Shown here: positions 8,178-36,567 of the stretch, one piece after another
Numbering within the stretch: the stretch's first letter is position 1
Layout: each line of letters starts with the position of its first letter
Source: Deltaproteobacteria bacterium
Lineage (GTDB): Bacteria; Myxococcota_A; UBA9042; DTJE01
Assembly (NCBI GenBank): GCA_029555025.1
Contig: JAKPTZ010000115.1
Coordinates: 24,898-88,897, forward strand
Length of the DNA: 64,000 nt
Direction of reading: 5' to 3'
The notes under the pieces: generated by a model
What the model saw: the letters and a program-made list of their open reading frames with translations, nothing else
Told to the model about the DNA's origin: nothing
Databases searched by the model: none
Translations under genes and position numbers: made by a program

Positions 8178-10610
8178 TCAGGTCGTTTTCCGCTTTCCGG
8201 CCTTTCCAGGTCGGTCCCGTTCGGGCTTTTCCTTCTCGCTCATCGCCTTGACCGCAGCGTCGGTCGCGGCGAAAACCGAACCTTTTTCCCAGGTTCCGTC
8301 TTCCTGCCTGGTTCCGGCCGGCAAGCCGGTCATGATTTCGACCACTTCCTCGATGCGGCGAGCCGCCCAGATGTTGAAGCGTCGTTTCCTGACGGCCTCC
8401 TCGACCTCCGGTTCCAGAACCAGGTTGCGCTGGTTCGCGGCAGGAATGATCACACCCTGGCGTCCGGTCAGTCCGCGTTCACTGCAAATCTTGAAAAAGC
8501 CCTCGATCTTCTCGTTGACGCCACCGACCGCCTGCACGTCTCCGGTCTGGTTCAGGCTTCCGGTGACGGCGACGTCCTGCCTCAGCGGAATCCGGGAAAG
8601 CGAGGACAGAACCGCGCAGAATTCCGCGCATGAAGCCGAGTCCCCGTCGATGCGTCCGTACGACTGTTCGACCGTCAGGCTGACCGTGATGCCGGGAACG
8701 CGATTCTTTGCGAACATGTCGCCCAGAAGGCCGGAAATGATGAGGACGGCCTTGTTGAAGGTGTTTCCGGAAAGCCTTGCCTCGCGTTCGACGTTGATGA
8801 TTCCGGCGGAACCCCGGAATGATTTGGCGGTGATCCTCAGAGGCATCCCGAAAGTCTGGTCGGCCATCTGATAAACGGCAAGTCCGTTGATGACGCCGGG
8901 AATCGCGCCCTCGGAATCGATGATGACGGTTCCGTTCAGGACCATCTCGACGCCCTTGTCCCAGGAGAGCGAAACGCGATCCTTGCGCTGGCGGCGCGCG
9001 GCGATGATGTGCCTGGCGTCGATGATTGCCGATCCTTCCTGGCGTGCCAGGTGATCCGCCTCGATCAGCAGGTTCAGAACCAGATTGAACTGAAGCGTGA
9101 GTCTGTCGGACGCGTCGGCCATCCGCATGGAGTATTCGATCACGTCCGCGACGCCGGCCGACGAAACGGGAAGCAGTCCGTCACGTTCACTGGTCGTGGC
9201 TATGAACCTTGCATATTCCTGGAGCATGTCGTCGGAAACGGCGACTTCCGAGTCGAACTCCGCCTTGATCTGGAAGGCTTTTCCAAATTCCTCGTCTGCC
9301 TCGTGCAGAAGCTGGTACAGGAAATTGCTGCCTACCAGGATTACCTTGCAGGACATCGGGATCGGATTCGGCCGGATGGTCGTGGTAGGCAGGAACTGGT
9401 AGGCCTCGCCCATCTCGGCAATCTCCAGCAGCCTTTGACGCAGCACGGTCTTCAAGGCCTCCCACGCAAACGGATACGACACCAGTTCCCGGGTATGCAG
9501 AATCAGGAATCCGCCGTTTGCCCGAAGCAGAGAGCCAGCCTTGATCATCGTGAAATCGGTTGAATAGATGCCGTTTTCAACGCGCTTCTCGATGCGCCCG
9601 ACAAGGTTGTGGTAAGTCGGGGTGTTTTCGAAGACGACCGGCGCGCCCCTGACTTCGGAGTTGTCCACCAGCAGGTTGACCTTGTATTCGGTCATTGCCG
9701 CTTCGATGAGTTGTTTGGTCATGCCGTCGTCGGAGTCCTCGGCCAGGAATCGCGGGATGTTTTCAAGAATGCTGGCCCTGACCGCCTCCAGGTGGGCTAT
9801 CACTTCCGGACAAGATGAGTATTCGGCCAGCAGGGCCTTCATCGACTCATCCATCGTTTCGGCACACAGGCGGTTGTTGGCCACCTGAACCTTCGCATGG
9901 ACAATCTGCTCCGCTTCCTTGTTCTTTTCGAAAAACGCCGCGATTGCAGGCTCGATTGCCCTGCGGTTTTCATCGATGGTCTTCTTCTGGGCGTCCGAAA
10001 GCTTCGCGTATTCCTTGTTGCTGATGGCCTCGCCGTCAACCACGGGTATGGTGACCAGGCCTTCCTTTGTCTGCTTCACCTGGAAGTTGTTCCTGCCTGC
10101 CACCTCGTCCAGCCGTTCGAAGGCCTCGTTTTCGATGGCCAGTCCCTCGTTCAGGATTTCCTGAAGCGTTTCCTGGTGTTTCTGGGTGTGAAAGGCCCTG
10201 GGCAGGTTCTTCTTCAGCGAAGAAATGAACTCGTCCATCTGACCGCGGAACTGAAGCCCCTTGCCTGCCGGCAGGCTGAAAACCCTTGGGGTTTCGGGGT
10301 GCTTGAAGTTATTGACCATGCACCAGTCGGGGGGCGTGGGCATCTGCCTGGATGCCTCATCGACAAGTCTTTTGAGAAGGCTCGACTTGCCGGTTCCGGA
10401 GGCACCTGAAACGTAGATGTTGAAGTTTCGCTTCTGGATCGAAAGGCCGAGTTCGAGAGCTTTCTGGGCCCGGGCCTGCTCAACGACCCCGACAAGCTTC
10501 TCGACGTGCCTTGTGCTCCGGAACTTGAATATGGAAGGGTTGATGTGGCGATGTACCTGCTTCCAGCCCAGGCGGCAGTCTTTTTCAGCGGACGGTTTTT
10601 TCGCGGCCAT
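8178..10610 (-). CDS. Lon-like protease (LonB/BrxL-like): N-terminal AAA+ P-loop domain plus C-terminal S16 Lon protease domain
   Basis: Walker A NIYVSGASGTGKSSLLKRL. Lon catalytic Ser in GRIDGDSASCAEF (equivalent to DGPSAG) and Lys in VGGVNEKIEGF. The putative Walker B region reads GGFLILHTRE, with no canonical hhhhDE. Confidence 0.8.
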   Translation of the reverse strand: MAAKKPSAEKDCRLGWKQVHRHINPSIFKFRSTRHVEKLVGVVEQARAQKALELGLSIQKRNFNIYVSGASGTGKSSLLKRLVDEASRQMPTPPDWCMVNNFKHPETPRVFSLPAGKGLQFRGQMDEFISSLKKNLPRAFHTQKHQETLQEILNEGLAIENEAFERLDEVAGRNNFQVKQTKEGLVTIPVVDGEAISNKEYAKLSDAQKKTIDENRRAIEPAIAAFFEKNKEAEQIVHAKVQVANNRLCAETMDESMKALLAEYSSCPEVIAHLEAVRASILENIPRFLAEDSDDGMTKQLIEAAMTEYKVNLLVDNSEVRGAPVVFENTPTYHNLVGRIEKRVENGIYSTDFTMIKAGSLLRANGGFLILHTRELVSYPFAWEALKTVLRQRLLEIAEMGEAYQFLPTTTIRPNPIPMSCKVILVGSNFLYQLLHEADEEFGKAFQIKAEFDSEVAVSDDMLQEYARFIATTSERDGLLPVSSAGVADVIEYSMRMADASDRLTLQFNLVLNLLIEADHLARQEGSAIIDARHIIAARRQRKDRVSLSWDKGVEMVLNGTVIIDSEGAIPGVINGLAVYQMADQTFGMPLRITAKSFRGSAGIINVEREARLSGNTFNKAVLIISGLLGDMFAKNRVPGITVSLTVEQSYGRIDGDSASCAEFCAVLSSLSRIPLRQDVAVTGSLNQTGDVQAVGGVNEKIEGFFKICSERGLTGRQGVIIPAANQRNLVLEPEVEEAVRKRRFNIWAARRIEEVVEIMTGLPAGTRQEDGTWEKGSVFAATDAAVKAMSEKEKPERDRPGKAGKRKTT

Positions 10611-10692: not shown

Positions 10693-12318
10693 TCACCTTG
10701 CGGAGCCCTGACGGAGTTCAGGTGGAAGGTATCGCGAAAAGGCCCCGGCACCGGAGTTGGAACCGAAGCTTGCCCCCGATTCCAGCCCGCTTCCGGCGGT
10801 GGCCTTGACAGCGACCCCGCCGCGGGAGGCGTCGGTGACCGTCCAGTTCCTGCCGCCGATGATGACGTCGGCACCGGCGGCCGTCCTGGCCGACACCATG
10901 CCGACGGTGCGCCCTGTCCCCGCATCCACGACTTTGATCGAGGCGGAGTCGGCGATATTGGAGTGTATGCGTCCCCGTTCGCCCATGTCCATCAATCTTG
11001 ACGAGGCCCGAAGCACTTCGCCGGCGCTTTCGTCCAGGAAGCCTTCGGTACGCAGGTGATCGACGATCGCGTCGATGACCGGGCCAGGTGCGACGGGGTC
11101 AAGGATTCTTCGGATCGTGGCGCGTCGAAGTCCCTTTCTGTTTTCAAACAGAAGGGAAAATATCTGCTGAACCGCGACCGACAGGTCTGGCAGCCTTTCT
11201 GACTGCGGGAATGCCTGTTCGACGACGTCATTCATCAGCATCGCGAATCTTCCTTCATCCCCCGGTCCGTCCGGAACGAATATGGCCCTCATGCCGTCGC
11301 GCCGCCTGCAACCGCGGCCGACCCTCTGCTGGAGCGATGCGACCGTTTCGGGCGCTCCGAACAGAACGACTGCATCGACGTCACCGATATCGACCCCGAG
11401 TTCCATGGTGGATGTCGAGACCAGGATGCCTGCCTCGAAGTACCTGAAAGCCTTTTCAACGTCCTCGCGTTCCCGGCGGGCGAGGCTGGCGTGGTGCACC
11501 ATGACTCTCTCGGCCGGCCACGGGCCCGTCCTGAGCACCAGGGCCGCGGTTTCCTCGGTCTTCTTCCTGGTGTTGCAGAATATTATGGCCTTCGTGAGCC
11601 GTTCCGAACGCAGAAGCGCGAGTGCGGACGGGATGTCGGGGGACACCGTGGCATCCAGAGGCCTTCTTCTGTCATCCCGAACGACCTCGGGCCTTTCACC
11701 GAAAAGTCGCGTTCCCAGGCCGGCGGGATCCCCGACGGTCGCCGTTACGGCAATCAGCCGGGGCCTGGCCGCCGACCGTTTCATCTGAATCCGTCGAATC
11801 AGTATCCGCAACTGGTCGCCGCGCGCGGTACCGTCCATCAGGTGCGCCTCGTCGATGACGATCGCGTGAAGGTTGTCGAAAGCCGCCGGATGGCGGCAAA
11901 GCAGCGAATCGAAAGACTCCGGCGTCGTAATCAGGAGGTCGGTGTGATCCCTTCCAACCGGTGAAGGGCGGTCGCCGGTCCTGACCCGGCTGCTCATCTT
12001 CATTGCCGCGGCCGGCTCGCGAACGCGGTTTTCGATGTCGTTAGCCAGCGCCCTGGTGGGAACGATGTACAGAATGCCAACCTGCGGACGGGGATCTTCA
12101 ATGGCGGCCATTTCCTCGAAAAGCGGGGCGAGCACGGCCTCGGTCTTGCCGGAAGCGGCGGGCGCGACAACGACGGCATCCCGCCCCGAGGCAATGACCG
12201 GAATCGCAAGTTCCTGGATCCCGGTAAGGTTGCCGAAGCGGGCCAGAAATGCCGGAAACGCGCGCGGAAGGGATCTGGCGGCATCCATCCGGCTGAATCT
12301 GTCGATGCCCGGTTTCAA
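10693..12318 (-). CDS. Lhr-like (BrxHI-like) DEAD/DEAH-box superfamily-2 helicase
   Basis: Motif I VAPAASGKTEA, motif II VIDEAHLM, motif VI QRVGRGCRR. 541 aa, so shorter than canonical Lhr. ATGA start/stop overlap with the upstream ATPase gene. Confidence 0.8.
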   Translation of the reverse strand: MKPGIDRFSRMDAARSLPRAFPAFLARFGNLTGIQELAIPVIASGRDAVVVAPAASGKTEAVLAPLFEEMAAIEDPRPQVGILYIVPTRALANDIENRVREPAAAMKMSSRVRTGDRPSPVGRDHTDLLITTPESFDSLLCRHPAAFDNLHAIVIDEAHLMDGTARGDQLRILIRRIQMKRSAARPRLIAVTATVGDPAGLGTRLFGERPEVVRDDRRRPLDATVSPDIPSALALLRSERLTKAIIFCNTRKKTEETAALVLRTGPWPAERVMVHHASLARREREDVEKAFRYFEAGILVSTSTMELGVDIGDVDAVVLFGAPETVASLQQRVGRGCRRRDGMRAIFVPDGPGDEGRFAMLMNDVVEQAFPQSERLPDLSVAVQQIFSLLFENRKGLRRATIRRILDPVAPGPVIDAIVDHLRTEGFLDESAGEVLRASSRLMDMGERGRIHSNIADSASIKVVDAGTGRTVGMVSARTAAGADVIIGGRNWTVTDASRGGVAVKATAGSGLESGASFGSNSGAGAFSRYLPPELRQGSAR

Positions 12319-13811
12319 ATCGCGTCGCCTTCGCCACCGGAAACGACCATCTGTTCCACGTCGCCATCGGGATAGAAGCGGACGTAGTCGAGGGCTTCGA
12401 TCACGGACTTGATGAACGTTCTGGTCGATTGTATCCGGTCGGCCGTGTACAGCAGCCTGAACAGCCTGTCCTGGCGCTTCTTCTCCAGTTTCACGCCGTA
12501 CGTGGTGTCATAAGTGCGGCATATCCTGCGGAAAAGCTCGCGAAGCTGATCCATTGAAAGGACATCGACCTGGACCCTTGTAATCGTTTCCCTGGTCCGG
12601 CTGAATTCATCCTGGAGCGTGCCCGGAGTAAGCGCGAACGCGACCTTCAGGGCACCGGGAATTCCGGTGGTGTATCTGACGGGGTGATGTGCCGAGTATA
12701 TCAGGCCGGATACCGCGCCCTGGATTGTTTCGGCTCGAATGAGTTCCTCGTCCATGAGTACGTCGTCATCGTTGGCTGTAAGGACAAGCCCGCGGAAGAA
12801 GTTCATTCCGCGCTGGGCCTGGTATCGGTACATTACGCTTCCGGCCACTTCCGCCTCGTCCAGAAGAACCAGCAGGCCCATCATTCCAAGGACTTCCGAT
12901 GCTGCCCTGGCAGTTGCCGAAAGTATGTTGCAGTAGATGTTGGCACAGGTCGAGTAATCGTAAAGCGTCTTCTTGCGCCCGATCCGGCCTTCCCCGCGGG
13001 CTTCGATGAAGTCCCATTCTTCCTCGGTAAGTCCTGGCCTTTCGTGCGGCTCCTCCTCCTGGAGCCGCTCCAGGACGCTTGCAAAAAGCCAGTGGTCGCC
13101 AAGGACATCCCGCCAGCCCGGCCGGGACGCCACTTCACGCCAGAATCCACGGAAGTTCAACACCCGGTCATCAACGACGGCCTTGAATCCGGTGACCAGA
13201 TGCCGGTAAGCCTTCTTGGGAAAAGCTGCCGATGCCTCGGATGGATCGAAACCCGCCATGGCGACCGCGTAGCCCAGTTGCTCCGCTTCGCCCGCCAGGA
13301 ATCGCAGCAGGTGGCTCTTGCCCGCGCCGTAGGCCCCTTCCACCAGGGCTGCGCCCTCGGCATGGTCGTGAAGGAATTCCATCAGTTGCCCGACTTCATC
13401 CTTGCGCCCGACCGTCCACTCCCCGATCGATGAAGATGGCACGATCCCAAGCCTGAAGGCCTCTATAGCCATGCTTGCACTGACCGGCCGGTTTTCCGGC
13501 AGCATTCGATACACCGGAGCCCGATGTTTCCTGGCTCCTGCAGGTTCCTCGCTCGCTGGAGCCTGTCCCCCAAGCAGGCGGAGGATTGCGTCAAGGGATG
13601 TGCTGGAGGGTGCCGTCGATCGAACAGCCGGAGCCTCGTCTTCGACGAGCTTCAGCCCTTCACCGGCACGGACAAGTTCCCGCGCCGGGATCCACAGGCT
13701 GTAAACCCCGAAGTTGACACGGAATTCAAATCCGCCAATCCGTGAACCAAGCACCGTGCCGTCGCCATATGTGGCATGCGTCACGGCATCGCCCTTTTCG
13801 AACCTATTCAT
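12315..13811 (-). CDS. BrxD/DUF2791-like P-loop ATPase with an N-terminal UvrD/PcrA-C-terminal-like Tudor motif
   Basis: Walker A GAYGAGKSHLLRFL and Walker B LLVLLDEAE. The N-terminus reads MNRFEKGDAVTHATYGDGTVLG, the G-D-x-V-x-H-x-x-(F/Y)-G-x-G-x-V motif of the UvrD/PcrA C-terminal Tudor-like domain. Paralogous to the next gene. The start is ambiguous: ATG at 13811 (2 nt after the upstream stop) or 13832. Confidence 0.7.
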   Translation of the reverse strand: MNRFEKGDAVTHATYGDGTVLGSRIGGFEFRVNFGVYSLWIPARELVRAGEGLKLVEDEAPAVRSTAPSSTSLDAILRLLGGQAPASEEPAGARKHRAPVYRMLPENRPVSASMAIEAFRLGIVPSSSIGEWTVGRKDEVGQLMEFLHDHAEGAALVEGAYGAGKSHLLRFLAGEAEQLGYAVAMAGFDPSEASAAFPKKAYRHLVTGFKAVVDDRVLNFRGFWREVASRPGWRDVLGDHWLFASVLERLQEEEPHERPGLTEEEWDFIEARGEGRIGRKKTLYDYSTCANIYCNILSATARAASEVLGMMGLLVLLDEAEVAGSVMYRYQAQRGMNFFRGLVLTANDDDVLMDEELIRAETIQGAVSGLIYSAHHPVRYTTGIPGALKVAFALTPGTLQDEFSRTRETITRVQVDVLSMDQLRELFRRICRTYDTTYGVKLEKKRQDRLFRLLYTADRIQSTRTFIKSVIEALDYVRFYPDGDVEQMVVSGGEGDAI

Positions 13812-15093
13812 AGATATCGTCCGGGTCGGCATCTTCGCCGGGCGAAAGCATTCGCGTGGCGAATTCCTCGTCGATCACGGTGTCCGGTTCGAACCGCAGC
13901 GCGTGCATTGCCCGCACGACGGCCTGGACGAACATTCTCTTGTACCCTATGTCGCCAAAGGCGCGTTCGGCGGTCGCATCCGCGAGAACCCTTACCAGAT
14001 TGCGGGTCTGATCGGCCGGCATGCGGAACTGGTAGGCGTTTTCATAGACGCCGCACAGTTTTCTTCCGATGTCGTTCATCAAGGTCTTCGGATCCCTTGC
14101 GATTCGATCAAGCCGGACTTTGACGCCGGTGGGGTTCGTGTAGTCGAATACCGTCTGAATTCTCTGGCGAAGCGCTTCGTAAGCCGGAGATCGGCCCTCG
14201 GTCAGGAACTGCTCGTTTGGAATGGCATAAAAGACCATCGTGTTCGCGAACGAGGAAGCCCCGCACTGATCAACCATCTCGCGCAGGTTGGCCAGCATCA
14301 GTTCCTTCTGCTTGGAAGTCATCGAGCCGGCCTGTTCGGCCTCGTCGAACAGGATGATGATGCCGCCGAAGCGCAGGTTCCGAACCCACGTCACCAGTGA
14401 TCTGATCGTGGCGAACGCCTGGGATCTGTCAATCGGCTGCAGAACCCCTCCAGCCTTGTGCGACAGCCGATCCCAGCCATCGACGGTAAGGTACTGCAGC
14501 ATTGCGTCGAACTGATCCTGGTCATTGCGGGTCAACGCTTCAATGGCAAGTCGGACGGCCTTCCCGAAATTCGGGTTTTCGCAGCCACGAACCGAATCGG
14601 CCGCAATTGCCCTGATGCGATCTTCCAGTTGTTCGCCGGCGATGCCTTCCTCTTCGGCGATGGCGGTCTTCATGTCGTGATAGACCGCCTTGATGAAGGC
14701 GCCGAGCCCGCGCTCCCCGCCGGTCAGGAGTTCATCCGGCGTCAGTGGACGCATCAGGTTGACCGCGATGGACTTGTAAACCATGTCCAGGCGGTGGAAC
14801 GGCGACGATTCCGCCGAAAGCGGGCAGTATGTGACCAGGTAGTCATGACGCCAGGCAAGCTCGCGGACGCTGTACAGGAAGTGTGTCTTGCCGCCGCCAT
14901 ACGTTCCGACGACGACTTTGAACGACGACCCGCCTTCGCGGACGAATGACTTGAGGTAATCGTCCTCGATCACCTTCAGGTACCCGTCAAGGCCCGAGGA
15001 AAAGAACTGGAAACCCCATTCGGGCGGGGTTCCGGACGAACCGACCACTTCGATAATGTGGCGGGCCTGCCTGGCGGTCAGGTTGTCAACCAT
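13804..15093 (-). CDS. BrxD/DUF2791-like P-loop ATPase (paralog)
   Basis: Walker A VVVGTYGGGKTHFLYSV and Walker B IIILFDEAEQ. Starts MVDNLTARQARHIIEVVGSSG. The ATG at 15093 has a GGGAG RBS. The longer ORF to 15243 would overlap the upstream gene by 118 nt. Confidence 0.7.
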   Translation of the reverse strand: MVDNLTARQARHIIEVVGSSGTPPEWGFQFFSSGLDGYLKVIEDDYLKSFVREGGSSFKVVVGTYGGGKTHFLYSVRELAWRHDYLVTYCPLSAESSPFHRLDMVYKSIAVNLMRPLTPDELLTGGERGLGAFIKAVYHDMKTAIAEEEGIAGEQLEDRIRAIAADSVRGCENPNFGKAVRLAIEALTRNDQDQFDAMLQYLTVDGWDRLSHKAGGVLQPIDRSQAFATIRSLVTWVRNLRFGGIIILFDEAEQAGSMTSKQKELMLANLREMVDQCGASSFANTMVFYAIPNEQFLTEGRSPAYEALRQRIQTVFDYTNPTGVKVRLDRIARDPKTLMNDIGRKLCGVYENAYQFRMPADQTRNLVRVLADATAERAFGDIGYKRMFVQAVVRAMHALRFEPDTVIDEEFATRMLSPGEDADPDDIYE

Positions 15094-15124: not shown

Positions 15125-15988
15125 TCAGGCAGTAACCTTAACAAACCGGAGCGTTGCGAAGTTAACGCCCTCAAGGATTCCAGGTCTCGGCACCCAGAGG
15201 TGATCCCCGGCATTCCTTGTCTGGGACATCGTCGCCACGTCAAGCCTCAGTTCCATTCCCCGGATGATCCGGTTTCTGAGCCTTGACAGATCCGCCGCGA
15301 ATTCCACCCTTCCGTACGACCTGAAGGTCTCCTTTCGCGGATCAATCAGGAAGGCCGGCTTCTGGCGCATAAAGGCGATTTCCGGGATCAGCGACGTGAC
15401 CGGCACGCGGCCCCCGGACTCGGCACCGGTGCGTATCACGGCCAGCCGGTAAGCCTTTTCAAGTTCGGCAAGGAAAGCCGGCTCGTCGAAAGAATCCGGA
15501 AAGAGCCTGCCGTTCTGTTCCCGGATCTGCGCGCAGATGTCTTCGGGATCCAGAGAAGCCGCCGCCAGCCTGTATTTGCCGGGTCCAAGCCATATGGTGC
15601 ACAGGCCCTTTGAACCGAATGTGAATTCCAGCGAGAAAGGCCCGGCCGTCAGCGTGGGAAGGTTTCCGGACACCTTGAAGTCTTCTTCGTTCAGGCGTTT
15701 TGCGACCGCTCCCGCAAGCAGCGCCTTCTCGCGATCAAGGCGGCTGCGGGATTCCGACAGCGTCGCCGCAATCGCCGCCTTCATTGCCGCGGCGCCCGTT
15801 TCCAGCCCGGCGATGTCCCCGATTGCCCGCAACGCCCTTTCGGCCATGTCGATTGATGATGCCAGGTTCCCCTTGCGGTGTTCCCTGGAGAATTCCTCAA
15901 CCGACTTTCCGGCGTTGGCGGCAGCCTTGATGGCCTTCAGGAACGTCTTGACCTGTTCTTCCATGGGCTTCCCCCGGGGTTGCTTCAT
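15125..15988 (-). CDS. Hypothetical protein (287 aa), first gene of the ATPase/helicase/protease operon
   Basis: Long ORF on the coding strand of the operon. No motif recognised. A 31-nt gap separates it from the downstream ATPase. Confidence 0.5.
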   Translation of the reverse strand: MKQPRGKPMEEQVKTFLKAIKAAANAGKSVEEFSREHRKGNLASSIDMAERALRAIGDIAGLETGAAAMKAAIAATLSESRSRLDREKALLAGAVAKRLNEEDFKVSGNLPTLTAGPFSLEFTFGSKGLCTIWLGPGKYRLAAASLDPEDICAQIREQNGRLFPDSFDEPAFLAELEKAYRLAVIRTGAESGGRVPVTSLIPEIAFMRQKPAFLIDPRKETFRSYGRVEFAADLSRLRNRIIRGMELRLDVATMSQTRNAGDHLWVPRPGILEGVNFATLRFVKVTA

Positions 15989-16074
15989 CCGATCCGGGTC
16001 GCCCCGGCCGCGCAGTATTATAAGGCCAAATCAATTTATGGCGATTGAAAGCGTGTAACCTGTCGGGAACTTCG

Positions 16075-17076: not shown

Positions 17077-17309
17077 CGGCCAAATCCGGGTTGTCCATTT
17101 TCGGACAAGTGAAAAAGTACGTCGCGGATTGTAACATGGATCCGTCCGGGCCGGGCCGGACGCCTTCGCGCGCCATGCCGTCAGCCAGAGTGCCGGCCCT
17201 TGTCTGGCGGCGCGTTTCGGGCGATCATGCCGGCTGAAGCGGTCTGAATGTTGTGCGGGGATTGTCTGCCGGGCGTCGCAAGTCGATCGCCGGGCATCGG
17301 AGATTCCAG

Positions 17310-20300
17310 ATGCGAACCGGGTCTTCCGGGATGTTGCCGGTCGTTGCGATGGCGTGTCTATTTGTGTCGTCGTGCGGCAGCCATGTGGAGAAGGCCGATA
17401 TCGGGGGCTCCTGCCGGGAAGACTCCGATTGTCAATCCGCCCTCTGTTTCGCAGACGTATGCATCGATCCCCTGGCGGACCAGGATTGGGACGGTCTTTC
17501 GGCGGGCGATGAAGTTGAAATCGGGCTGGATCCGTTTCACCCGGACAGTGATCGCGACGGCATTCCCGACGGCCTGGAAGTGGGCCCCGAGCTTGCGACT
17601 CCGGCGGATTATGACGGGGACGGCGTCATCGACGCTCTTGAGTCCGCTTTTTCGGATTCTGACGGGGACTGCCTTCCGGATCAGTATGATCCTCTCGATG
17701 CGCTCGGGCCGGCCGGCTCAAGTCAGATGGTGCCGGTGCTGTGCATGACAGCCGGGGTCTGCGGGGCCGCAATGAACACCATTGTCGCTACCTGCGACGG
17801 CTCGAAGGTAACGTGCAGCTATGAAGGCGTGCCAGGCTGGAACGCCGCGGAATGGATGTGTGACGGAAAGGACAACAACTGCGACGGTCGAACCGACGAA
17901 GGTTTTCTTCACGAAGGCTTGTCCATCGGACTTCCCTGCCTTGGGGCAGGAAGTTGTGGCCCGGGTATCGTCGAGTGCGATGACTCGGGCTTTTCGACCA
18001 GGTGTTCGTCAAACCCCGGCGCTTCTGGCGACAGATCCATGCCCGAGGTGTGCGACGGTCTCGACAACGATTGCGACGGCTTGACCGACAACGGCATGTC
18101 GTGGAAGGGCGTGCCCCTCGGGGAACGTTGTGACGGCGAAGGCGAGTGCGGCATCGGCAAGGTCGAATGCCTGGCCGACAGGACGGCTTCCTGTTCAACC
18201 ATGAAGGGTGGAAGTCACGAACAGATCCAGGAGGAATCCTGTGACAACCTTGACAACGACTGTGATGGACGAACCGACGAGACATTTTTCGGCAACGCTT
18301 CCGAACTGTGCGTTCCCCGCGGCGTCTGCGCCCTGTTCCCCAACATGATTTCGTTGAAGTGCGAGCAGGGGATCCTGAAATGCGACTTCAGTGCTGTGCC
18401 TGGGTATTCGGGAAGTTCCGAGATGTTCTGTGATGGACAGGATGACGATTGCGACGGGCTGGTTGACGAGGAACTGTCGTTCGCGGTGACCGAACCTGGC
18501 GCCGTGATAAGGCTTCCCGGCCAGTCCTGCGGTTCGGGCGCCTGTGCCGGCGGGGTCGTCACGTGCTCGCCGAGTTCGATGTCCGGCATGTGTTCCACCA
18601 CGCCCCTTGCCGCGCCGGAGAAGTGCGATGGAATCGATGACGACTGCGACGGGTACATAGACAACGGTTTCGCCCTGAGTTGGAAGCCGGCGCTTGAAAC
18701 CATCATGGACAGGGAGCCGCAGGCGCTTGTTTCGTCGCGGATGGCCGTGGTCGAGTATTCCCTGGAGGATCCGCCTGAACCAGGTGAACCGCCTGCCGGC
18801 ATATATGTATGCGGCGGGGCCGTTGGAAGTCCTGAGAACGGTTCGTCCGGGATTTCAAGGCGTTGCTGGCTGTACAGCTTTGATTCGCATCGTTTCGATC
18901 GACTTCCCGACGGGCCCGAAGTCGATTCGGGGGCGATGGTTCATGACAGGGCGGGCGGAAGCCTGCTGATGGTGGGTCGTCTGTTCGCGTCCGGCGAAGT
19001 CGCCGTTTTCCGGATGAACGGAATCGATTTCGGATGGAGCAGGCTGCCCTGGGAACTGGAAAGTGGCGAGGTTCTTGCCGCCGGAGTGGATCCGGTTGAA
19101 AACACCCTGAATATCCTCACGAATGGTGATTCCGGGCTTCTGGTGAGCATGGTCGGGCTGTCCGATGGCTCCGTCCTGACCGTTCAGGCGGGCGAGCGCG
19201 TCTCTGCCGGCTCCTTTGCCGCCGGTTCGCCCTCCGGGGGGTTTGTCCTGTTTCATGCCTGCAACGAGCTTGCCGGCACTGTGGTCGAACATGTCTCGCC
19301 GGACGGGCAGGTCAACGGGCTGCCGCTTGCAGGACAGAGTCCATGCATGTCCTTCGGCGCGGCGGTCATGCCGATCCCGGGACGCATCGTCGCGATTGAG
19401 GGCAGGGCACTTGACGGCTCGGTCCAGGCCACAAGGGAATTCCTGCTGGGCGATGACCTGTGGCACCACGAAAGGATCACGGTTCCCGGCGGCCAGGGAT
19501 CCGTCATGCATCCCGCGATGGCCTCCTCTGGCGACACCGTCTATGCATTTTCCGGGGAGTATGGTGATGGAGGGGCACTGCGGCGTGTGATCCGGCTGGA
19601 TCGCGAATCGACGGAATGGCTGGTTGACAGCTTCGTAAGCGGTCCATCTCCCAGGGCGGGCGGCGTTGCGTTCGTTTCGCGCCTGACGGCGGCGGCCTAT
19701 TTCATTGGCGGCTATTCGGATGAACCGGGCGGGCCTCAGCCAGTCCAGGATGTGTGGAAGATTGATCTGGTCAATCCGCGGATTGGACAGATTGCGGTGT
19801 CGGGCGAACCAGGGGCGGTTATAGGTGCTGCTGCGGCCATCAATGATTCCGGCCAGACCGCCTACATTTTCGGGGGGCTCGATTCGCCGCCGGGGCCCGA
19901 CTCCAGGCCGGTTAGCAGGTTCCTTCGGTTCAACTGCATTCAGTCGAGGTTTGATTCGATTCAGTCGGGGGAAGGCGGTCCGACGGCACGTTATGGACAC
20001 TCGCTTGTCTGGGCCGGTGACAGGTTGCTTCTTTACGGCGGCCTGAACGACACCGGTTTCCTTTCCGATCTCTGGTCCTGGGCTCCGGACGAAGGCTGGA
20101 TCTTCATTGGATATTTCGAACTCAGCTATGGCCACCAGGCGTTCTGGGACAATCCCGGCAAGCGCATGCTGGTCGTCGGGGGCAGGCCAGGTGGGGGCCT
20201 TCGCGCATACTATCCCGCCACATCCACGTGGAAAAGCCTGCTGTCCGGGGTTCTGTTCGATTCGTATGAAGGCCACGGCTGGTTTGACGAGCAATCCGGC

Positions 20301-20522
20301 AGCGTGCTTTATCTTTCATCGACATCCAGCGACGCGGTGGTCGTGACTTTCCTTGAAGACGGGCTTGTCGATCAGGTCATCCCCGGACTGCAGCCGGATT
20401 TGATCGATGCGTTCGTGGTTTATGATCCGTTCGGGCGCCGGGCCATGATGCTCGGTGGCAGGGATCCCTCGAACGGGACCGTCGGAACCGTTTCGCAAAT
20501 CGATCAGTCCTGCGGGCGATGA
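17310..20522 (+). CDS. Large lipoprotein with MopE-like putative metal-binding CxDxxDNDCDG repeats, DxDxDG calcium-type motifs and C-terminal Kelch/beta-propeller repeats
   Basis: Lipoprotein signal (…MLPVVAMACLFVSSCG). At least 5 copies of C-D-G-x-D-N-(D/N)-C-D-G-x-(T/V/I)-D-(E/N) (CDGKDNNCDGRTDEGF, CDGLDNDCDGLTDNG, CDNLDNDCDGRTDETF, CDGQDDDCDGLVDEE, CDGIDDDCDGYIDNGF). C-terminal Kelch-like YGHSLVWAGDRLLLYGGLNDTGFLSDLWSW. Start chosen at ATG 17310; ATG 17331 is an alternative. Confidence 0.75.
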   Translation: MRTGSSGMLPVVAMACLFVSSCGSHVEKADIGGSCREDSDCQSALCFADVCIDPLADQDWDGLSAGDEVEIGLDPFHPDSDRDGIPDGLEVGPELATPADYDGDGVIDALESAFSDSDGDCLPDQYDPLDALGPAGSSQMVPVLCMTAGVCGAAMNTIVATCDGSKVTCSYEGVPGWNAAEWMCDGKDNNCDGRTDEGFLHEGLSIGLPCLGAGSCGPGIVECDDSGFSTRCSSNPGASGDRSMPEVCDGLDNDCDGLTDNGMSWKGVPLGERCDGEGECGIGKVECLADRTASCSTMKGGSHEQIQEESCDNLDNDCDGRTDETFFGNASELCVPRGVCALFPNMISLKCEQGILKCDFSAVPGYSGSSEMFCDGQDDDCDGLVDEELSFAVTEPGAVIRLPGQSCGSGACAGGVVTCSPSSMSGMCSTTPLAAPEKCDGIDDDCDGYIDNGFALSWKPALETIMDREPQALVSSRMAVVEYSLEDPPEPGEPPAGIYVCGGAVGSPENGSSGISRRCWLYSFDSHRFDRLPDGPEVDSGAMVHDRAGGSLLMVGRLFASGEVAVFRMNGIDFGWSRLPWELESGEVLAAGVDPVENTLNILTNGDSGLLVSMVGLSDGSVLTVQAGERVSAGSFAAGSPSGGFVLFHACNELAGTVVEHVSPDGQVNGLPLAGQSPCMSFGAAVMPIPGRIVAIEGRALDGSVQATREFLLGDDLWHHERITVPGGQGSVMHPAMASSGDTVYAFSGEYGDGGALRRVIRLDRESTEWLVDSFVSGPSPRAGGVAFVSRLTAAAYFIGGYSDEPGGPQPVQDVWKIDLVNPRIGQIAVSGEPGAVIGAAAAINDSGQTAYIFGGLDSPPGPDSRPVSRFLRFNCIQSRFDSIQSGEGGPTARYGHSLVWAGDRLLLYGGLNDTGFLSDLWSWAPDEGWIFIGYFELSYGHQAFWDNPGKRMLVVGGRPGGGLRAYYPATSTWKSLLSGVLFDSYEGHGWFDEQSGSVLYLSSTSSDAVVVTFLEDGLVDQVIPGLQPDLIDAFVVYDPFGRRAMMLGGRDPSNGTVGTVSQIDQSCGR

Positions 20523-31549: not shown

Positions 31550-33742
31550 ATGAATGAACGCGCAATGAACGAACTTCAAGAGATCCGATCGTTGACGTCG
31601 GGATACATGCCGGGCGCCGATCTGCAAAGGGTCGAGGATGTCCTTGAACTGGCGCGGGTCGAATCCGGCGGCGATCCGTCGGTGCTTGCTGCCGCGATGC
31701 GGATTGTTCGACCGGTGTGCCGTTTGAAGCTGGACGTGCCGTCGATATGCGCCGCCATCGCGCTGGCAATGCCGCCCGGGCCGGACGGCGGTCCATCCAC
31801 GCGTGGCCTGGACGAGGATTCGGCGCGCCTGGCCGAGGGCGTCATCGGTCTTGGTCGTTTCCAACTCCTTTCCAGCAAGTCCGGGCAGGCGGAGGCATTC
31901 AAGAGGATGCTGGTCGCGCTTGCCGGCGACATCCGCGTGTTGCTGGTCAAGATGGCCATGCGCCTGGCGGAGCTTCACCAGACCTCGGACGATCCAGGGG
32001 CCGAGCAGATCCGGGTCGCCGAGGAAGCGATGATGATTTACGGCCCGCTGGCGGAAAGGATGGGTATTTCCTGGCTGCGGACCGAGATCGAGGACGAGGC
32101 GTTCCGCGTCATGAGGCCGACCGAATACGCTTCCCTGAAGCTGGCGGCGGATCGGCGTCTGGCCGAGCGGCAGGAATTCATCGCGGGCGTCGTCGGGCGG
32201 CTTCAGGCGATGATCGTTCAGGGCGGGCTGGCGGGGTTCGAGGTTTTTGGACGCCAGAAGAACCTTTACGGCATCTGGAAGAAGATGCAGATCCAGGGCA
32301 TCGAGCTTGAACAGGTCTATGATTTCGTGGCCTTCCGCGTGATCGTGCAGAAGCCGGGCGACTGCTGGCAGGTGCTTGGGCTGGTTCACGATACATGGAC
32401 GCCCATTCCGGCGCGCTTCAAGGATTTCATCAACGTTCCAAAGCCGAACGGCTACCGGTCGCTTCATACGTCGGTATTCGGCCCGCTTGGCGAGCCGATG
32501 GAAATCCAGATCCGTACATGGGAAATGCATCGCGAGGCAGAGTCGGGAATCGCCGCGCATTGGTCGTACAAGGAGTCGGGCCGAATCGAGGTTCGGGATT
32601 CCGAGCGCCTGGGCTGGATGAAGCAGGTTGTTGAATGGGCCCGCGAGATTCAGTCGGGCCGTGAGACCGAGCAGGGGCCGCTGATCGAGGAAGCGCGGGA
32701 AGGACTGCTGGTCGATCAGGTGTTCGTGTTCACCCCGCAGGGCGACCTCAGGGTTCTTCGGCAGGGGGCCACCTGCCTGGATTTCGCGTACGACGTTCAT
32801 ACCGAGGTCGGTCATTCGTGCACCGGCGTGCGGGTTAACGGCCGGCTGGTGCCGTTGTCAACCGAACTGGTTTCAGGAGACGTGGTCGAGGTGATGACGT
32901 CCAGGACGGCCAGGCCCCGCAGGGACTGGCTGAATTTCGTGGTTTCGTCCAAGGCCAGGGCGAAGATACGAAGCTGGTTCCTGGAACAGGACAGGCGCGA
33001 GGCGCTCGAGGTCGGCCGCCAGCTCCTGGAAAAGGAGTTCCGTCGGGCCGGCGCCCATGTAGTCAAGTATTTCAAGGAACTGCTTCTTGACGAAGAAAAG
33101 GGCCGGAAGGTTGCCGAGTCTTTCCGCATCGGAAGCCGTGACGAACTCATCAGGGCGGTCGGTCACGGTCGCGTGTCGGCGGCCGATGTCGTAAAGGCGG
33201 TTGTTCCAGTCGCCGCCCCGGGGGTTCCCGAACCGGAAAGGCCCGAAATCCTTCCGAAGAAGCTGCGCAGTCCGACTGGGATTGAGGTTGACGGGATTGA
33301 CGGCATGATGGTGCACATTGCGCGTTGCTGCAACCCGATCCCGGGCGACGGAATTGTCGGATACGTCACCAGGGGAAGGGGGGTGACAATTCACACGGTT
33401 TCCTGCCGGTCGGTTCTGGACGGTGATCCGGAGAGGGTGCTTCCGGCAACCTGGAACAGTGGCTCTGGCGGTACCTTCAACGTGCCGGTAAGGATTACGG
33501 TGCGCGATGTCCCGGGCATTCTGGCCGGCGTCACCACCGAGATCGGCAGGCAGGGCGCGAACATCGCCGGGGTCTCGACGAAGCGGGACGACAGTGGATT
33601 GCAGCAGGTTGACGTGGTTCTGCAGGTTGCCGATCAGTCCATGCTGGACGGAATCGTCCGTTCGGTTCGACGGCTGCGCGGGGTCGTCGAGGTCATGCGG
33701 GTTCGCGGGCCCGGTGTCTCGGCGGTCGCCGAACGGCGCTGA
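31550..33742 (+). CDS. relA: RelA/SpoT-family (p)ppGpp synthetase, probably hydrolase-inactive (RelA-type)
   Basis: Synthetase core …YRSLHTSVFGPLGEPMEIQIRTWEMHREAESGIAAHWSYKE. TGS domain (FVFTPQGDLRVLRQGATCLDFAYDVHTEVG). C-terminal ACT (VRITVRDVPGILAGVTTEIG). No recognisable HD His-Asp pair in the N-terminal region. Confidence 0.85.
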   Translation: MNERAMNELQEIRSLTSGYMPGADLQRVEDVLELARVESGGDPSVLAAAMRIVRPVCRLKLDVPSICAAIALAMPPGPDGGPSTRGLDEDSARLAEGVIGLGRFQLLSSKSGQAEAFKRMLVALAGDIRVLLVKMAMRLAELHQTSDDPGAEQIRVAEEAMMIYGPLAERMGISWLRTEIEDEAFRVMRPTEYASLKLAADRRLAERQEFIAGVVGRLQAMIVQGGLAGFEVFGRQKNLYGIWKKMQIQGIELEQVYDFVAFRVIVQKPGDCWQVLGLVHDTWTPIPARFKDFINVPKPNGYRSLHTSVFGPLGEPMEIQIRTWEMHREAESGIAAHWSYKESGRIEVRDSERLGWMKQVVEWAREIQSGRETEQGPLIEEAREGLLVDQVFVFTPQGDLRVLRQGATCLDFAYDVHTEVGHSCTGVRVNGRLVPLSTELVSGDVVEVMTSRTARPRRDWLNFVVSSKARAKIRSWFLEQDRREALEVGRQLLEKEFRRAGAHVVKYFKELLLDEEKGRKVAESFRIGSRDELIRAVGHGRVSAADVVKAVVPVAAPGVPEPERPEILPKKLRSPTGIEVDGIDGMMVHIARCCNPIPGDGIVGYVTRGRGVTIHTVSCRSVLDGDPERVLPATWNSGSGGTFNVPVRITVRDVPGILAGVTTEIGRQGANIAGVSTKRDDSGLQQVDVVLQVADQSMLDGIVRSVRRLRGVVEVMRVRGPGVSAVAERR

Positions 33743-33834: not shown

Positions 33835-36567
33835 ATGAAGCGTTTTCAATATGTCATCTGTCTGACCTTTGCGGTGTCTGGATTTGCCGGCTGCGGTGGC
33901 GGCAATCAGATTGGCGACGTGGTCGGGGATGTTCCGGACGAGGATAGGATTGTCGAGTTGGACGTCACGCATGACGAAGGTCAGCCTGACGAAGGCAGGG
34001 ACATCGGAAGGGACGAAGGCGAGCCTGGCGATTCCGTGGATGACCGCTTCGTGGATGATTCCGACGTAAACGGCGATATCGACGACATCGACGGCGGTGA
34101 CGAGTCCGGGGGCGATACCCCTGAAACGGACGGGTGCCCCGGCGAGACGTGCGAGCCGTGCCCGGACGACGGCCTGTTCTGCACCGAGGAGTATCGCGAT
34201 TCGCTGGGCGAATGCCAGATTCGCGTGAAGCCCGAATTCTGCATGATTGGCGGCGAATGCCTTTTCGAGAACCAGCCTTCCCCCGATGACATGTGCCTGG
34301 CTTGCAGGCCGGCCGTCAGCGGTTCCGAGTATTCCCCCGCGGAAGGGATGCCGTGCGACGACGCGGATCCGTGCACTGCCGGCGACACCTGCGATGCGGA
34401 CGGCATTTGCCAGCCGGGCGCCGGTTTCGGATGCGATGACGACAACGAGTGCACCATCGACCGTTGCGACCCCAATTTCGGATGCACGAACACCCCGCGG
34501 GCTTCCACGTGCGACGACCACGATTCGTGCACGTACCAGGATCAGTGCAATGTCCAGACCGGCGTCTGCAAGGGTTTCCCGGTCAACTGCAACGATGGTA
34601 ACGAATGCACCCGTGACTATTGCGATTCGTTCGACGGTTGTCAGCACGAGCCCATTTCGAAGGCTTGCAACGACTTCGACGGGTGCACCTTGAATGATAT
34701 GTGCAATGAAGACGGCGTCTGCCAGGGCACTCCGATGGACTGTTCGGACGGTATTGAATGCACCGTCGATTCCTGCATGTCCGGCGTCTGCCTGAACGAC
34801 TGGCATTACGGCCCGTGCAACGACGGCGACATGTGCACGGATAACGACTTCTGCAATGGTTATCACGAGTGTGCCGGCATCCCGAAGACATCATGCGACG
34901 ATTACAACGTCTGCACCACGGACTACTGCGACCCGGCGGTCGGATGCGTGAACGAATTCAATACGGTCGAGTGCGAGCCCGATTCGGCATGCGAGATAAA
35001 CGGCGTGTGCGCCGGCGGCGTGTGCGTCGGCCAGCCAAGGAACTGTGACAAGGGCAATCCGTGCATGATCTATTCGTGCAATCCGGACACGGGCTGCAAG
35101 GAAATTCCGACAACCGGCGTGTGTGACGACCACAACGCATGCACCATCAACGAAAATTGTTCGACCGGAGCATGCATTCCGCCTGAAGGGCCGGCCGGCG
35201 TCACGAACTGCGACGACTTGAACGACTGCACCGTTGACAACTGCGTTCCGGCCGTCGGTTGCGTGCATACCCCGCAGGAAGGCGAATGCCAGGATCCGAA
35301 TCCGTGCAGCCTGACCGGAACCGGTTTCTGCAGGAACGGCGAGTGCATTTCGAACGTCAGGGACTGCGATGACAACCAGCCGTGCACGCTCGACACGTGC
35401 GACGGCGCGGGCAACTGCATCCATCCGCCGATTTCGGGATTCTGCGATGACGGCAATCATTGCACGTTCGACGAGGTCTGCATCGGCGGCGACTGCATCG
35501 AGGGAAAGAAGGTAGATTGCAACGACTCAAACGTATGCACGCTGGACGAATGCAACCCGGATTACGGATGTGTCTATACGCCGACCGGCGGTTCGTGTTC
35601 CGACGGTGACGTCTGCACCATCAACGACGGGTGCGCAAACGGCACCTGCGTCGGGACGGTCAGGGCATGCGAGGACTACAACGTCTGCACCGACAACGGC
35701 TGCAACAAGACTTCGGGATGCTTCTTCACGCCGAATTCGGTGGAATGCGACGACTTCAACATCTGCACATTCGACGACATCTGCGGCGCCGGTGAATGTC
35801 ACGGCGTGTCGGTGTTCGAGGATCCGGCGACCAAGGCCGCGACTTTGACTTATGGCGTCAACGGCAATCTCGGCCAGGGCGTCGATGTTGATGACGACCC
35901 GTCCACATGCGCGCCGAAGGGCAGTTGCGTCCAGGGTATCGACAACGCGTTTTCCAGGCTGCACTGGCTGTTCAACACCGAGATGTTGAACGCGTCGTCG
36001 GACGGCTCGTGGTCGCTGCTGCTGGAACACGACGGGTTGAAGGTGAACGGCACTGCGTATAACCTGAACCTTTACTGGGGCGCCAGGATTGACCCGGTGA
36101 CCTGTGACCCGACGACTTCCGGATGCAACTACGGCGTCTATACGTCGTCGTTGTCGCCAACCTGCGGGCCGCTTGACGTGTTCGACAACGCGGTGATCAA
36201 CGGCACGAAGCTGAAGGCGGGGGGTGCCACTTACGAAGTCCCGGTCAGCATCGTCTTCGGCGACACCAGGCGCGAACTGGTGCTTTACCGGGCCAAGGTC
36301 ACTGCCAACGTGTCGCTTGCGGGCGGCAAGGTCGTTGGCGGGGCCGGCGCGCTTGGCGGGGCATTCGTTGTCCAGCAGTTGGTCGAAGCGCTTGAATCGA
36401 TGCCGGAAAGCGCGTTCCTGCCGCGTTACAACAAGGAAATCATTCTTGCGTATATCGACATATACCTGAAGCCGGACATCGATCTTGACGGTGACGGAAC
36501 CGATGAGTCGGTTTCCGTCGGAATGCCGTTTTCGATTGTGACAGGTCACCTCATTGGCCCGATTTAA
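33835..36567 (+). CDS. Large lipoprotein composed of ~20 Myxococcus-type cysteine-rich repeats (C-x-D-x-N-x-C-T-x-D-x-C)
   Basis: Lipobox FAVSGFAGCGG. Repeats such as CNDGNECTRDYCDSFDGCQHEP, CDDYNVCTTDYCDPAVGCVNEF and CDDHNACTINENCSTGAC reiterate through ~600 aa. Acidic D/E-rich linker after the signal. Confidence 0.8.
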   Translation: MKRFQYVICLTFAVSGFAGCGGGNQIGDVVGDVPDEDRIVELDVTHDEGQPDEGRDIGRDEGEPGDSVDDRFVDDSDVNGDIDDIDGGDESGGDTPETDGCPGETCEPCPDDGLFCTEEYRDSLGECQIRVKPEFCMIGGECLFENQPSPDDMCLACRPAVSGSEYSPAEGMPCDDADPCTAGDTCDADGICQPGAGFGCDDDNECTIDRCDPNFGCTNTPRASTCDDHDSCTYQDQCNVQTGVCKGFPVNCNDGNECTRDYCDSFDGCQHEPISKACNDFDGCTLNDMCNEDGVCQGTPMDCSDGIECTVDSCMSGVCLNDWHYGPCNDGDMCTDNDFCNGYHECAGIPKTSCDDYNVCTTDYCDPAVGCVNEFNTVECEPDSACEINGVCAGGVCVGQPRNCDKGNPCMIYSCNPDTGCKEIPTTGVCDDHNACTINENCSTGACIPPEGPAGVTNCDDLNDCTVDNCVPAVGCVHTPQEGECQDPNPCSLTGTGFCRNGECISNVRDCDDNQPCTLDTCDGAGNCIHPPISGFCDDGNHCTFDEVCIGGDCIEGKKVDCNDSNVCTLDECNPDYGCVYTPTGGSCSDGDVCTINDGCANGTCVGTVRACEDYNVCTDNGCNKTSGCFFTPNSVECDDFNICTFDDICGAGECHGVSVFEDPATKAATLTYGVNGNLGQGVDVDDDPSTCAPKGSCVQGIDNAFSRLHWLFNTEMLNASSDGSWSLLLEHDGLKVNGTAYNLNLYWGARIDPVTCDPTTSGCNYGVYTSSLSPTCGPLDVFDNAVINGTKLKAGGATYEVPVSIVFGDTRRELVLYRAKVTANVSLAGGKVVGGAGALGGAFVVQQLVEALESMPESAFLPRYNKEIILAYIDIYLKPDIDLDGDGTDESVSVGMPFSIVTGHLIGPI

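Follow-up and report, generated by a model that had tools for sequence, protein, structure and literature searches.

We analysed a gene on the minus strand, at 12315-13811, of a 64,000-nucleotide stretch of contig JAKPTZ010000115.1 from a Deltaproteobacteria bacterium of the lineage Myxococcota_A, hereafter referred to as the window. Profile comparisons and structure prediction confirm that the N-terminus of its product, which we call protein B, is a homologue, in sequence as well as in fold, of the Tudor domain at the C-terminus of the PcrA/UvrD helicases. In B this domain precedes a BrxD-like ATPase, so that the protein combines known parts, and the gene belongs to a cassette, which is a widespread and undescribed unit of four genes that lies outside the loci of bacteriophage exclusion (BREX) systems. 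Most likely, the B Tudor is a flexible module that recruits a machine composed of ATPase and helicase. The proposal as a whole, i.e. that the flexible Tudor recruits the machine formed by B, its paralogue A and a helicase, with the β subunit of RNA polymerase (RNAP) or UvrB as the leading candidate partner, has in our judgement about an even chance of being correct.

The original prediction, which was made from the DNA sequence of the window, had placed the gene at 12315-13832. The open reading frame is real, but it is located on the minus strand and probably begins at the ATG at 13811 rather than at the one at 13832, which results in a product of 498 amino acids (aa) with the N-terminus MNRFEKGD. 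The ATG at 13811 overlaps the stop codon of the upstream gene by 8 nt (ATGAATAG), and in 45 related loci the distance from the upstream stop to the start of B is usually short as well (-38 to about +100 nt). Because almost all homologues and a database protein of 498 aa, which is identical to B, begin at the same methionine, the Tudor-like segment is part of the translated protein; both these starts and the overlap with the upstream stop indicate that the real start is not located downstream of it. The protein is composed of three parts, all encoded on the minus strand: a Tudor/SH3-like domain (residues 1-48, 13668..13811), delimited by AlphaFold2 (AF2) modelling, Foldseek, profile comparison with the PDB and hhalign; a linker of ~64 residues (residues 49-112, 13476..13667), delimited by the alignment of homologues and by the low confidence of the AF2 model beyond residue 50; and an AAA+ ATPase core (residues 113-498, 12315..13475), which is BrxD-like and of the ORC/Cdc6 type according to PF10923, PADLOC and NCBIfam.

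The first ~45 residues of B had been proposed to match the C-terminal domain (CTD) of UvrD/PcrA. The motif is indeed present (G7-D-A-V-T-H12-A-T-Y15-G16-D-G18-T-V20 at residues 7-20, complemented by F34), and the homology holds in sequence at the profile level and in the fold modelled with AF2. The single B sequence matches only weakly: the Pfam family PF21196 (PcrA_UvrD_tudor) was the sole match and was not significant (E 0.056-0.08, 13.2-13.7 bits, cut-off 23.9), and the best match of residues 1-70 alone in the PDB was a plasmepsin found by chance, i.e. noise. Yet the identity of the domain is significant because of its conservation across the homologues, about 80 of 95 of which retain it, down to an overall identity of 26%.

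The original prediction had suggested a profile search and a comparison of an AlphaFold model with the PcrA CTD as checks, and the outcome of both was in its favour. Searching the PDB with a profile of 58 Tudor domains of B homologues (A1) returned UvrD/PcrA CTDs as all of the top seven entries (7egt_B, E 2.4e-5; 7egs_B, E 1.2e-3; 6yi2, E 1.4e-3; followed by 4c2t, 5dma, 9dqs and 1qhh). Scanned individually, 28 of the 58 members match PF21196 (E<1), the best with an E of 2.9e-5, while 20 match CarD_TRCF_RID (PF02559). Compared by hhalign with an alignment of PcrA/UvrD-type Tudors (A5), which includes the CTDs of Geobacillus PcrA and E. coli UvrD with sequences verified against the PDB, A1 reached a probability of 98.2% and an E of 5e-14 over 35 columns that cover β1-β3. 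A word-indexed search for homologues, in which the profile of the 56-aa domain was the query, retrieved one protein only and was uninformative. In its place, 1.84 billion representative proteins were searched with A1 without an index. This yielded 453 proteins at E≤1e-3, among them P0215, a true UvrD helicase that carries Tudors at its C-terminus (E 1.8e-9), and tandem-Tudor proteins that score above the cut-off of PF21196. The AF2 model based on A1 is a five-stranded barrel (strands 9-12, 16-24, 29-33, 38-42 and 46-48; predicted local distance difference test score (pLDDT) of 88), which Foldseek superimposed on the UvrD/PcrA Tudors of T. thermophilus, M. smegmatis, Geobacillus and E. coli (7egt_B, 9dqs, 5dma, 7egs_B and 6yi2) at root-mean-square deviations (rmsd) of 1.5-1.9 Å, target-normalised TM scores of 0.55-0.81 and identities of 24-33%.

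The barrel could also be a generic SH3/KOW-like fold that serves as a structural cap and carries the motif by convergence or by chance. The sub-threshold match of the single sequence in Pfam would fit this explanation, as would the 21 of 58 members that match the MutS2-associated SH3 family (MSSS) and the Foldseek ranking, in which a MutS2 SH3-like domain had the top E-values and many unrelated Tudor, KOW and PWWP domains were matched. It is nevertheless very improbable in view of the exclusive presence of UvrD/PcrA CTDs among the top seven matches in the PDB, the E-value of the hhalign comparison, the retrieval of a UvrD C-terminal Tudor from such a large number of proteins, and the signature GDxVxHxx(Y/F)GxGxV, which together with F34 is invariant across phyla.

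Further proteins retrieved with the A1 profile combine the same type of Tudor with domains of the transcription machinery. P0130 contains three RNA_pol_A_CTD domains, a Sigma70_r4 domain and five Tudors, and P0128 one RNA_pol_A_CTD domain and three Tudors. CarD/PcrA-type Tudors are located at the C-terminus of the ADP-ribosyltransferases P0178 and P0260 (~1,800-2,100 aa), the very large protein P0169 combines Phage_Mu_F and an ADP-ribosyltransferase domain with Tudors, and in P0204, an FtsH-like AAA/M41 protein, the Tudors are N-terminal. The fusions to domains resembling the RNAP α-CTD, to σ70 region 4 and to ADP-ribosyltransferases give indirect support to a link between this type of Tudor and transcription, and some of the multi-Tudor proteins may originate from phages and have RNAP as their target.

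The Tudors of PcrA/UvrD (PF21196; 5DMA, 6YI2, 7EGS, 7EGT, 9DQS) and of B share the barrel of ~50 residues and the signature GDxVxHxx(aromatic)GxGxV...F; both are connected to an NTPase motor by a disordered linker, and the face formed by the histidine, the aromatic residue and the phenylalanine is common to both. They differ in position, since the PcrA/UvrD Tudor is found at the extreme C-terminus of a superfamily 1 (SF1) helicase and the B Tudor at the N-terminus of an AAA+ ATPase, and in the lysine for RNAP and UvrB, which the B Tudor lacks, its β4-β5 region having diverged to LW(V/I)P. The RNAP-interacting domain (RID) of Mfd and CarD/CdnL (PF02559) share the fold with the B Tudor at a lower sequence similarity than PcrA/UvrD, and they also deliver a motor or a regulator to RNAP β. 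Mfd and CarD bind to the β1 lobe by β-sheet augmentation, a site and a mode unlike those of PcrA. The closest characterised relatives of the domain, i.e. the PcrA/UvrD CTD and the CarD/Mfd RID, are RNAP-β binders.

The residues of the putative docking face are highly conserved. H12, G18 and F34 are invariant in the homologues, and V10, G16, R24, G27, V32 and W40 each occur in 90% of them or more; counted in 80 homologues, H12 and F34 are present in all 80, an aromatic residue at position 15 in 76 and W40 in 77. H12, Y15 and F34 correspond to H681, W684 and F705 of Geobacillus PcrA, and W40 to L714 in the preferred register. The substitutions H681A, W684A, K712A and L714A each severely lower the pulldown of RNAP by Geobacillus PcrA (PMC5397179). 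Two of these four RNAP-binding residues have conserved counterparts in B (H12 and the aromatic Y15) and a third position is still hydrophobic (W40 for L714). Judged by this pattern of conservation, the docking face of the B Tudor is conserved and probably functional.

The fourth residue, K712, is located in β4, where the B family shows the motif x-L-W-(V/I)-P as compared to G-I-K-R-L in PcrA. Its position is taken by Ser38 in the preferred register or by Leu39 in the alternative one. The register with S38 at K712 and W40 at L714 rests on strand position and motif comparison, the profile alignments stopping at β3, and it is favoured by Tudors that keep K-R-W-I (the P0128 repeats) and by distant members with R-L-W-L. 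PcrA/UvrD require this lysine (K712 in Geobacillus, K727 in B. subtilis, K708 in E. coli) in order to bind RNAP as well as UvrB. The PcrA Tudor docks onto a β-hairpin with the motif [VIL]-D-x-x-T-G-E, which is present in SI1 of RpoB and in UvrB, and K727 was modelled as pairing with the glutamate of the TGE motif (PMC8318588). Without this lysine and with a diverged β4-β5, the B Tudor would make contacts of a chemistry unlike that of PcrA, possibly with another partner. A scan for [VIL]-D-x-x-T-G-E-[VIL]-[VILT] and two relaxed forms gave no match in the six frames of the window, which does not contain rpoB or uvrB. Tethering to RNAP and transcription-coupled sensing, as put forward in the original prediction, represent a plausible hypothesis on which the evidence is mixed.

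The same surface could instead read nucleic acids, with H12, Y15, F34, W40 and R24 stacking on the bases of single-stranded DNA (ssDNA), RNA or DNA-RNA hybrids, which would provide B with substrate affinity or with a means to detect nucleic acid of an unusual kind, for instance DNA that is damaged or comes from phages. The B Tudor is richer in conserved aromatic residues than that of PcrA and has lost the protein-contacting lysine, and canonical BrxD is reported to be without a DNA-binding domain of its own (PMC12839542). The CTD of E. coli UvrD binds ssDNA and double-stranded DNA through F681, W709 and Y714 with a dissociation constant of 2-4 µM, but this binding is weak and non-specific, being ~25-50x weaker than that of the RNAP core (77 nM; 10.1101/2020.07.06.189035). 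In addition, few conserved basic residues besides R24 are found on the domain. The Mfd RID, moreover, does not bind DNA. We therefore regard a nucleic-acid reader as unlikely, and prefer recruitment to a protein partner.

The gene of B is the third of the cassette, all genes of which are encoded on the minus strand of the window. The first gene, ORF279 (15128..15964), encodes a protein of 279 aa with 24 homologues, for which AF2 predicts a three-helix bundle at the N-terminus and a C-terminal domain of the α/β type (pLDDT 90). Searches of PDB, BFVD, Pfam, PADLOC and NCBIfam gave no match to ORF279, the model had no structural relative, and the 24 homologues were likewise without a Pfam domain. 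The bundle is MIT-like (rmsd of 1.3 Å over 70 residues to 2v6y_A), a match that is not significant. The second gene (13807..15093) encodes the BrxD-like ATPase A (~429 aa, start MVDNLTARQ), which aligns with the full PF10923 profile (E 4.8e-38) and matches BrxD of PADLOC at 1.3e-36. A and B are paralogues with a BLASTP E of 1e-8 and 23% identity, and both match PF10923. The fourth gene (10693..12288, probable start MDAARS) encodes a Lhr/BrxHI-like superfamily 2 (SF2) helicase of the DEAD/DEAH type with the domains PF00270, PF00271 and Cas3-like_C_2, the best NCBIfam match of which, below its cut-off, was the ligase-associated DEXH helicase.

To describe the distribution of the cassette, six-frame translations of related loci were scanned with custom hidden Markov models (HMMs). 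The loci comprised ten metagenomic or genomic contigs (nine distinct after removal of the two duplicates) and 80 loci of species-representative genomes, giving 87 unique loci. The order ORF279 - A - B - helicase was present in 64 of these, the exceptions being mostly due to contig ends or missing helicases; ORF279 was found in most of them, and the helicase followed B in 71. B carried the Tudor in 73 loci, including eight divergent copies that were recognised by eye, whereas A carried it in none. The prediction of a Tudor on just one of the two paralogous ATPases is confirmed for the window. The intergenic gaps of the cassette are short or the genes overlap, and the cassette stays intact while the neighbouring genes vary by lineage. 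Bacterial carriers were found among Myxococcota (the closest, with 58% identity), Desulfobacterota, Nitrospinota, WOR-3, Acidobacteriota, Chloroflexota, Atribacterota, Gemmatimonadota and Planctomycetota, and archaeal carriers among Methanoperedens, ANME-1 and Methanosarcina. Two proteins of 959 and 965 aa (P0154 and P0221) unite the Tudor, the BrxD-like ATPase and DEAD/Helicase_C/Cas3-like_C_2 domains in one chain; as Rosetta-stone fusions of the third and fourth cassette genes, they speak for a joint action of B and the helicase. In the searchable literature, no description of the Tudor-BrxD-like fusion or of the four-gene cassette was found.

Two of the loci (L078 and L088) contain an additional A-type ATPase in the order ORF279-A-B-A-helicase. 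In a Tudor-less clade (L008, L010 and L014), B has lost both the Tudor and the linker, and its gene lies next to thrS-infC-rpmI-rplT-pheST. A loss of the Tudor in parallel with the loss of a partner gene was considered and rejected, as no clean correlation emerged: the helicase is missing in three of the six loci of the Tudor-less clade, is kept in other Tudor-less loci and is lacking in several loci that bear the Tudor.

The linker between Tudor and ATPase is of variable length, ranging from 11 to 178 aa with a median of 27 in 67 homologues, and is rich in proline (15%), alanine (12%) and glutamate (9%). The proximal clade conserves two motifs within it, namely GGLRLV just past the Tudor (EGLKLV in B, residues 51-56, 13644-13661) and (R)TSFDAIL (TSLDAIL in B, residues ~78-84, about 13560-13580), and both motifs may represent docking elements. 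Such elements would also suit an adaptor or autoinhibitor within the complex, in which the Tudor binds ORF279, A, the helicase or its own ATPase and thereby assembles or restrains the machine. In line with this, the Tudor occurs strictly on B and is inherited along with the cassette, and the invariant R24, E29 and W40 of the B family depart from the PcrA consensus. There is also a precedent, since the Tudor of mycobacterial UvrD1 was proposed to autoinhibit unwinding until Ku binds (PMC11975281). However, where the Tudor is absent, ORF279, A and in most cases the helicase persist in the cassette, and their sizes show no sign of compensation. Moreover, no protein of the cassette in the window contains [VIL]-D-x-x-T-G-E even in relaxed form, and a long variable linker fits reach better than a fixed intramolecular contact. 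An adaptor function is therefore possible but rather doubtful, and we maintain recruitment of the machine to an external partner as the preferred reading.

The designation of the ATPase as BrxD-like in the original prediction is appropriate at the level of the Pfam family PF10923; it does not extend to a BREX locus, as there are no BREX core genes nearby. The core of B contains an invariant Walker A (GAYGAGKSH, G159-H167) and an invariant Walker B motif (LLDEAE, D318/E319), and it matches PF10923 with an E of 4.6e-15 and 55.9 bits (cut-off 22.2), although only profile positions 8-106 of 414 align. As in the BREX systems of type 2 and type 6, in which the PF10923 ATPase BrxD adjoins the Lhr/Ski2-like SF2 helicase BrxHI, ATPase and helicase are neighbours in the cassette. 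BrxD has been described as an AAA+ protein of the ORC/Cdc6 type, i.e. a stand-alone ATPase without extra domains, which forms a tight dyad with BrxHI and possibly acts as its loader or activator (PMC12839542). In contrast to BREX, which has one BrxD, the cassette contains two paralogous ATPases as well as ORF279. Neither the 64-kb window nor the flanks of the nine related loci (L001-L010) contain BrxC, PglZ, PglX or PglW, and the scores against the NCBIfam model BREX_BrxD (NF033438), 41.6 bits for B and 125.7 bits for A, are far under the equivalog cut-off of 350; an assignment to BREX was rejected on these grounds. Shango is similar to the cassette in that it also stands alone and combines a small gene in first position with a BrxD-related ATPase and a helicase of the DEAD/DEAH type. 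It differs in its TerB-like SngA, its single ATPase and a SngB model without Tudor, whereas the cassette has two ATPases and an ORF279 without similarity to TerB. An assignment to Shango was rejected as well, because in PADLOC SngB (2.5e-9) and SngC (2.6e-56) rank second to BrxD (7e-11) and BrxHI (2.3e-73) for B and the helicase, respectively, and a TerB-like SngA is missing.

On the basis of these comparisons, we propose the following mechanism. A and B would assemble into an AAA+ hetero-oligomer by which the helicase is loaded or gated on nucleic acid, in line with a proposal for the BrxD-BrxHI dyad of BREX type 2. The Tudor on its flexible tether would attach this machine to a partner, with H12, Y15, F34 and W40 forming the contact surface. 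A β-hairpin on RNAP β or on UvrB would be the foremost candidate for this partner on grounds of homology. The Lhr-like 3'-5' helicase would thereby be brought to transcription complexes, as the Tudor of PcrA/UvrD does in cis, and ORF279 could act as an adaptor or effector.

Several observations weigh against this proposal. With regard to the domain itself, B alone stays below the gathering score of PF21196, the HMMER and hhalign alignments end at β3 and do not reach β4-β5, the Foldseek E-values for such a small domain are just 2e-3 to 5e-2, and the SH3/KOW domain of MutS2, Mfd, CarD and eukaryotic Tudors give Foldseek matches that are poorer or comparable. With regard to the partner, the β4-β5 half, which is home to K712 and L714 in PcrA, has diverged in B, and none of the 80 homologues has a lysine at either candidate position for K712, arginine being present in 15 (position 38) or 7 (position 39). 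The Tudors of PcrA/UvrD furthermore bind UvrB, Ku and DNA (PMC8318588, PMC11975281, 10.1101/2020.07.06.189035), that of mycobacterial UvrD1 being implicated in binding to Ku and possibly in autoinhibition (PMC11975281), and for this reason the fold alone does not name the partner. With regard to the machine, 14 loci are without the Tudor, most of them with the helicase, and several Tudor-bearing loci are without an adjacent helicase; the core machine can thus do without the Tudor, which is not coupled to the presence of the helicase either. Finally, the putative hetero-oligomer of A and B and its role as a loader are derived from the operon structure and from a hypothesis put forward for BrxD.

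Beyond the cassette, a gene for a LonC/LonB-like AAA+ protease (8178..10610, minus strand; domains AAA_32, LonB_AAA-LID, LonC_helical and Lon_C) is located 82 nt downstream of the helicase gene. It is present in the 72%-identical relative L001 and absent from L003 and L005-L007; as a probable case of lineage-specific synteny that is shared only with L001, it was rejected as a fifth part of the cassette. A promoter-like site (TCGCCA-16-TATAAT, 16017..16044, minus strand, 10 of 12 consensus matches) lies between the gene of a RluA-type pseudouridine synthase and ORF279. The σ70-like consensus scan yielded 3 sites as compared to 2.1 expected, and this site is no more than suggestive, by its position, which would be well suited to drive the cassette. 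The window furthermore encodes large repeat proteins at 17253-20522 (plus strand), 33835-36567 (plus strand) and 45836-51199 (minus strand), the repeat types being Kelch β-propellers with MopE metal-binding motifs, Dicty_CTDC repeats and a protein of 1787 aa with lamin-tail domains. The Kelch/MopE gene is syntenic in L001, and very large repeat proteins fit a Myxococcota-like genome. A full-length gene for a RelA/SpoT (p)ppGpp synthetase/hydrolase (31550-33742, plus strand) is located ~18 kb from the cassette and is probably unrelated to it, although the literature has linked ppGpp to UvrD-RNAP backtracking.

The genomic context of the cassette is that of housekeeping genes. Its neighbours in the window are the RluA-type synthase, Lon, NAD kinase, GH4 and SecD, and the remainder of the window is of the same character. 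The flanks of related loci are housekeeping or metabolic, with STAND and PIN neighbours at L007 only, and they are partly syntenic within lineages, as seen for the window and L001 and for L009 and L010, which both lie beside thrS-infC-rpmI-rplT-pheST. No copies of the cassette on plasmids or phages were found; yet the closest named relatives of its proteins are components of defence systems. A wider reading, which we consider improbable, is that the cassette represents a chromosomally stable machine for transcription-coupled genome maintenance of bacteria and archaea rather than an immune system, in which A and B are recruited by the Tudor and load the Lhr-like helicase. The Tudor would bring A and B to stalled or conflicting RNAP, and the helicase would remove R-loops or clear the template. 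If this were true, the cassette would be a functional analogue of PcrA, UvrD and Mfd that is assembled in trans, and BrxD-BrxHI of BREX type 2 as well as SngB-SngC of Shango would have their origin in a repair module that loads helicases and would share its mode of action.

BrxD-BrxHI of BREX type 2 and type 6 and SngB-SngC of Shango are recurrent pairs of an ATPase and a helicase. The cassette described here adds a large sister family from more than ten phyla, including methanogens and ANME archaea, in which the pair stands alone, the ATPase is duplicated and a recruitment domain is present, of the kind that brings PcrA/UvrD to RNAP and UvrB. The Tudor of 50 residues thus provides a direct experimental handle on what machines of the BrxD/BrxHI type are recruited to, and the identity of its partner would help to decide whether the original role of the module was in defence or in transcription-coupled genome maintenance.

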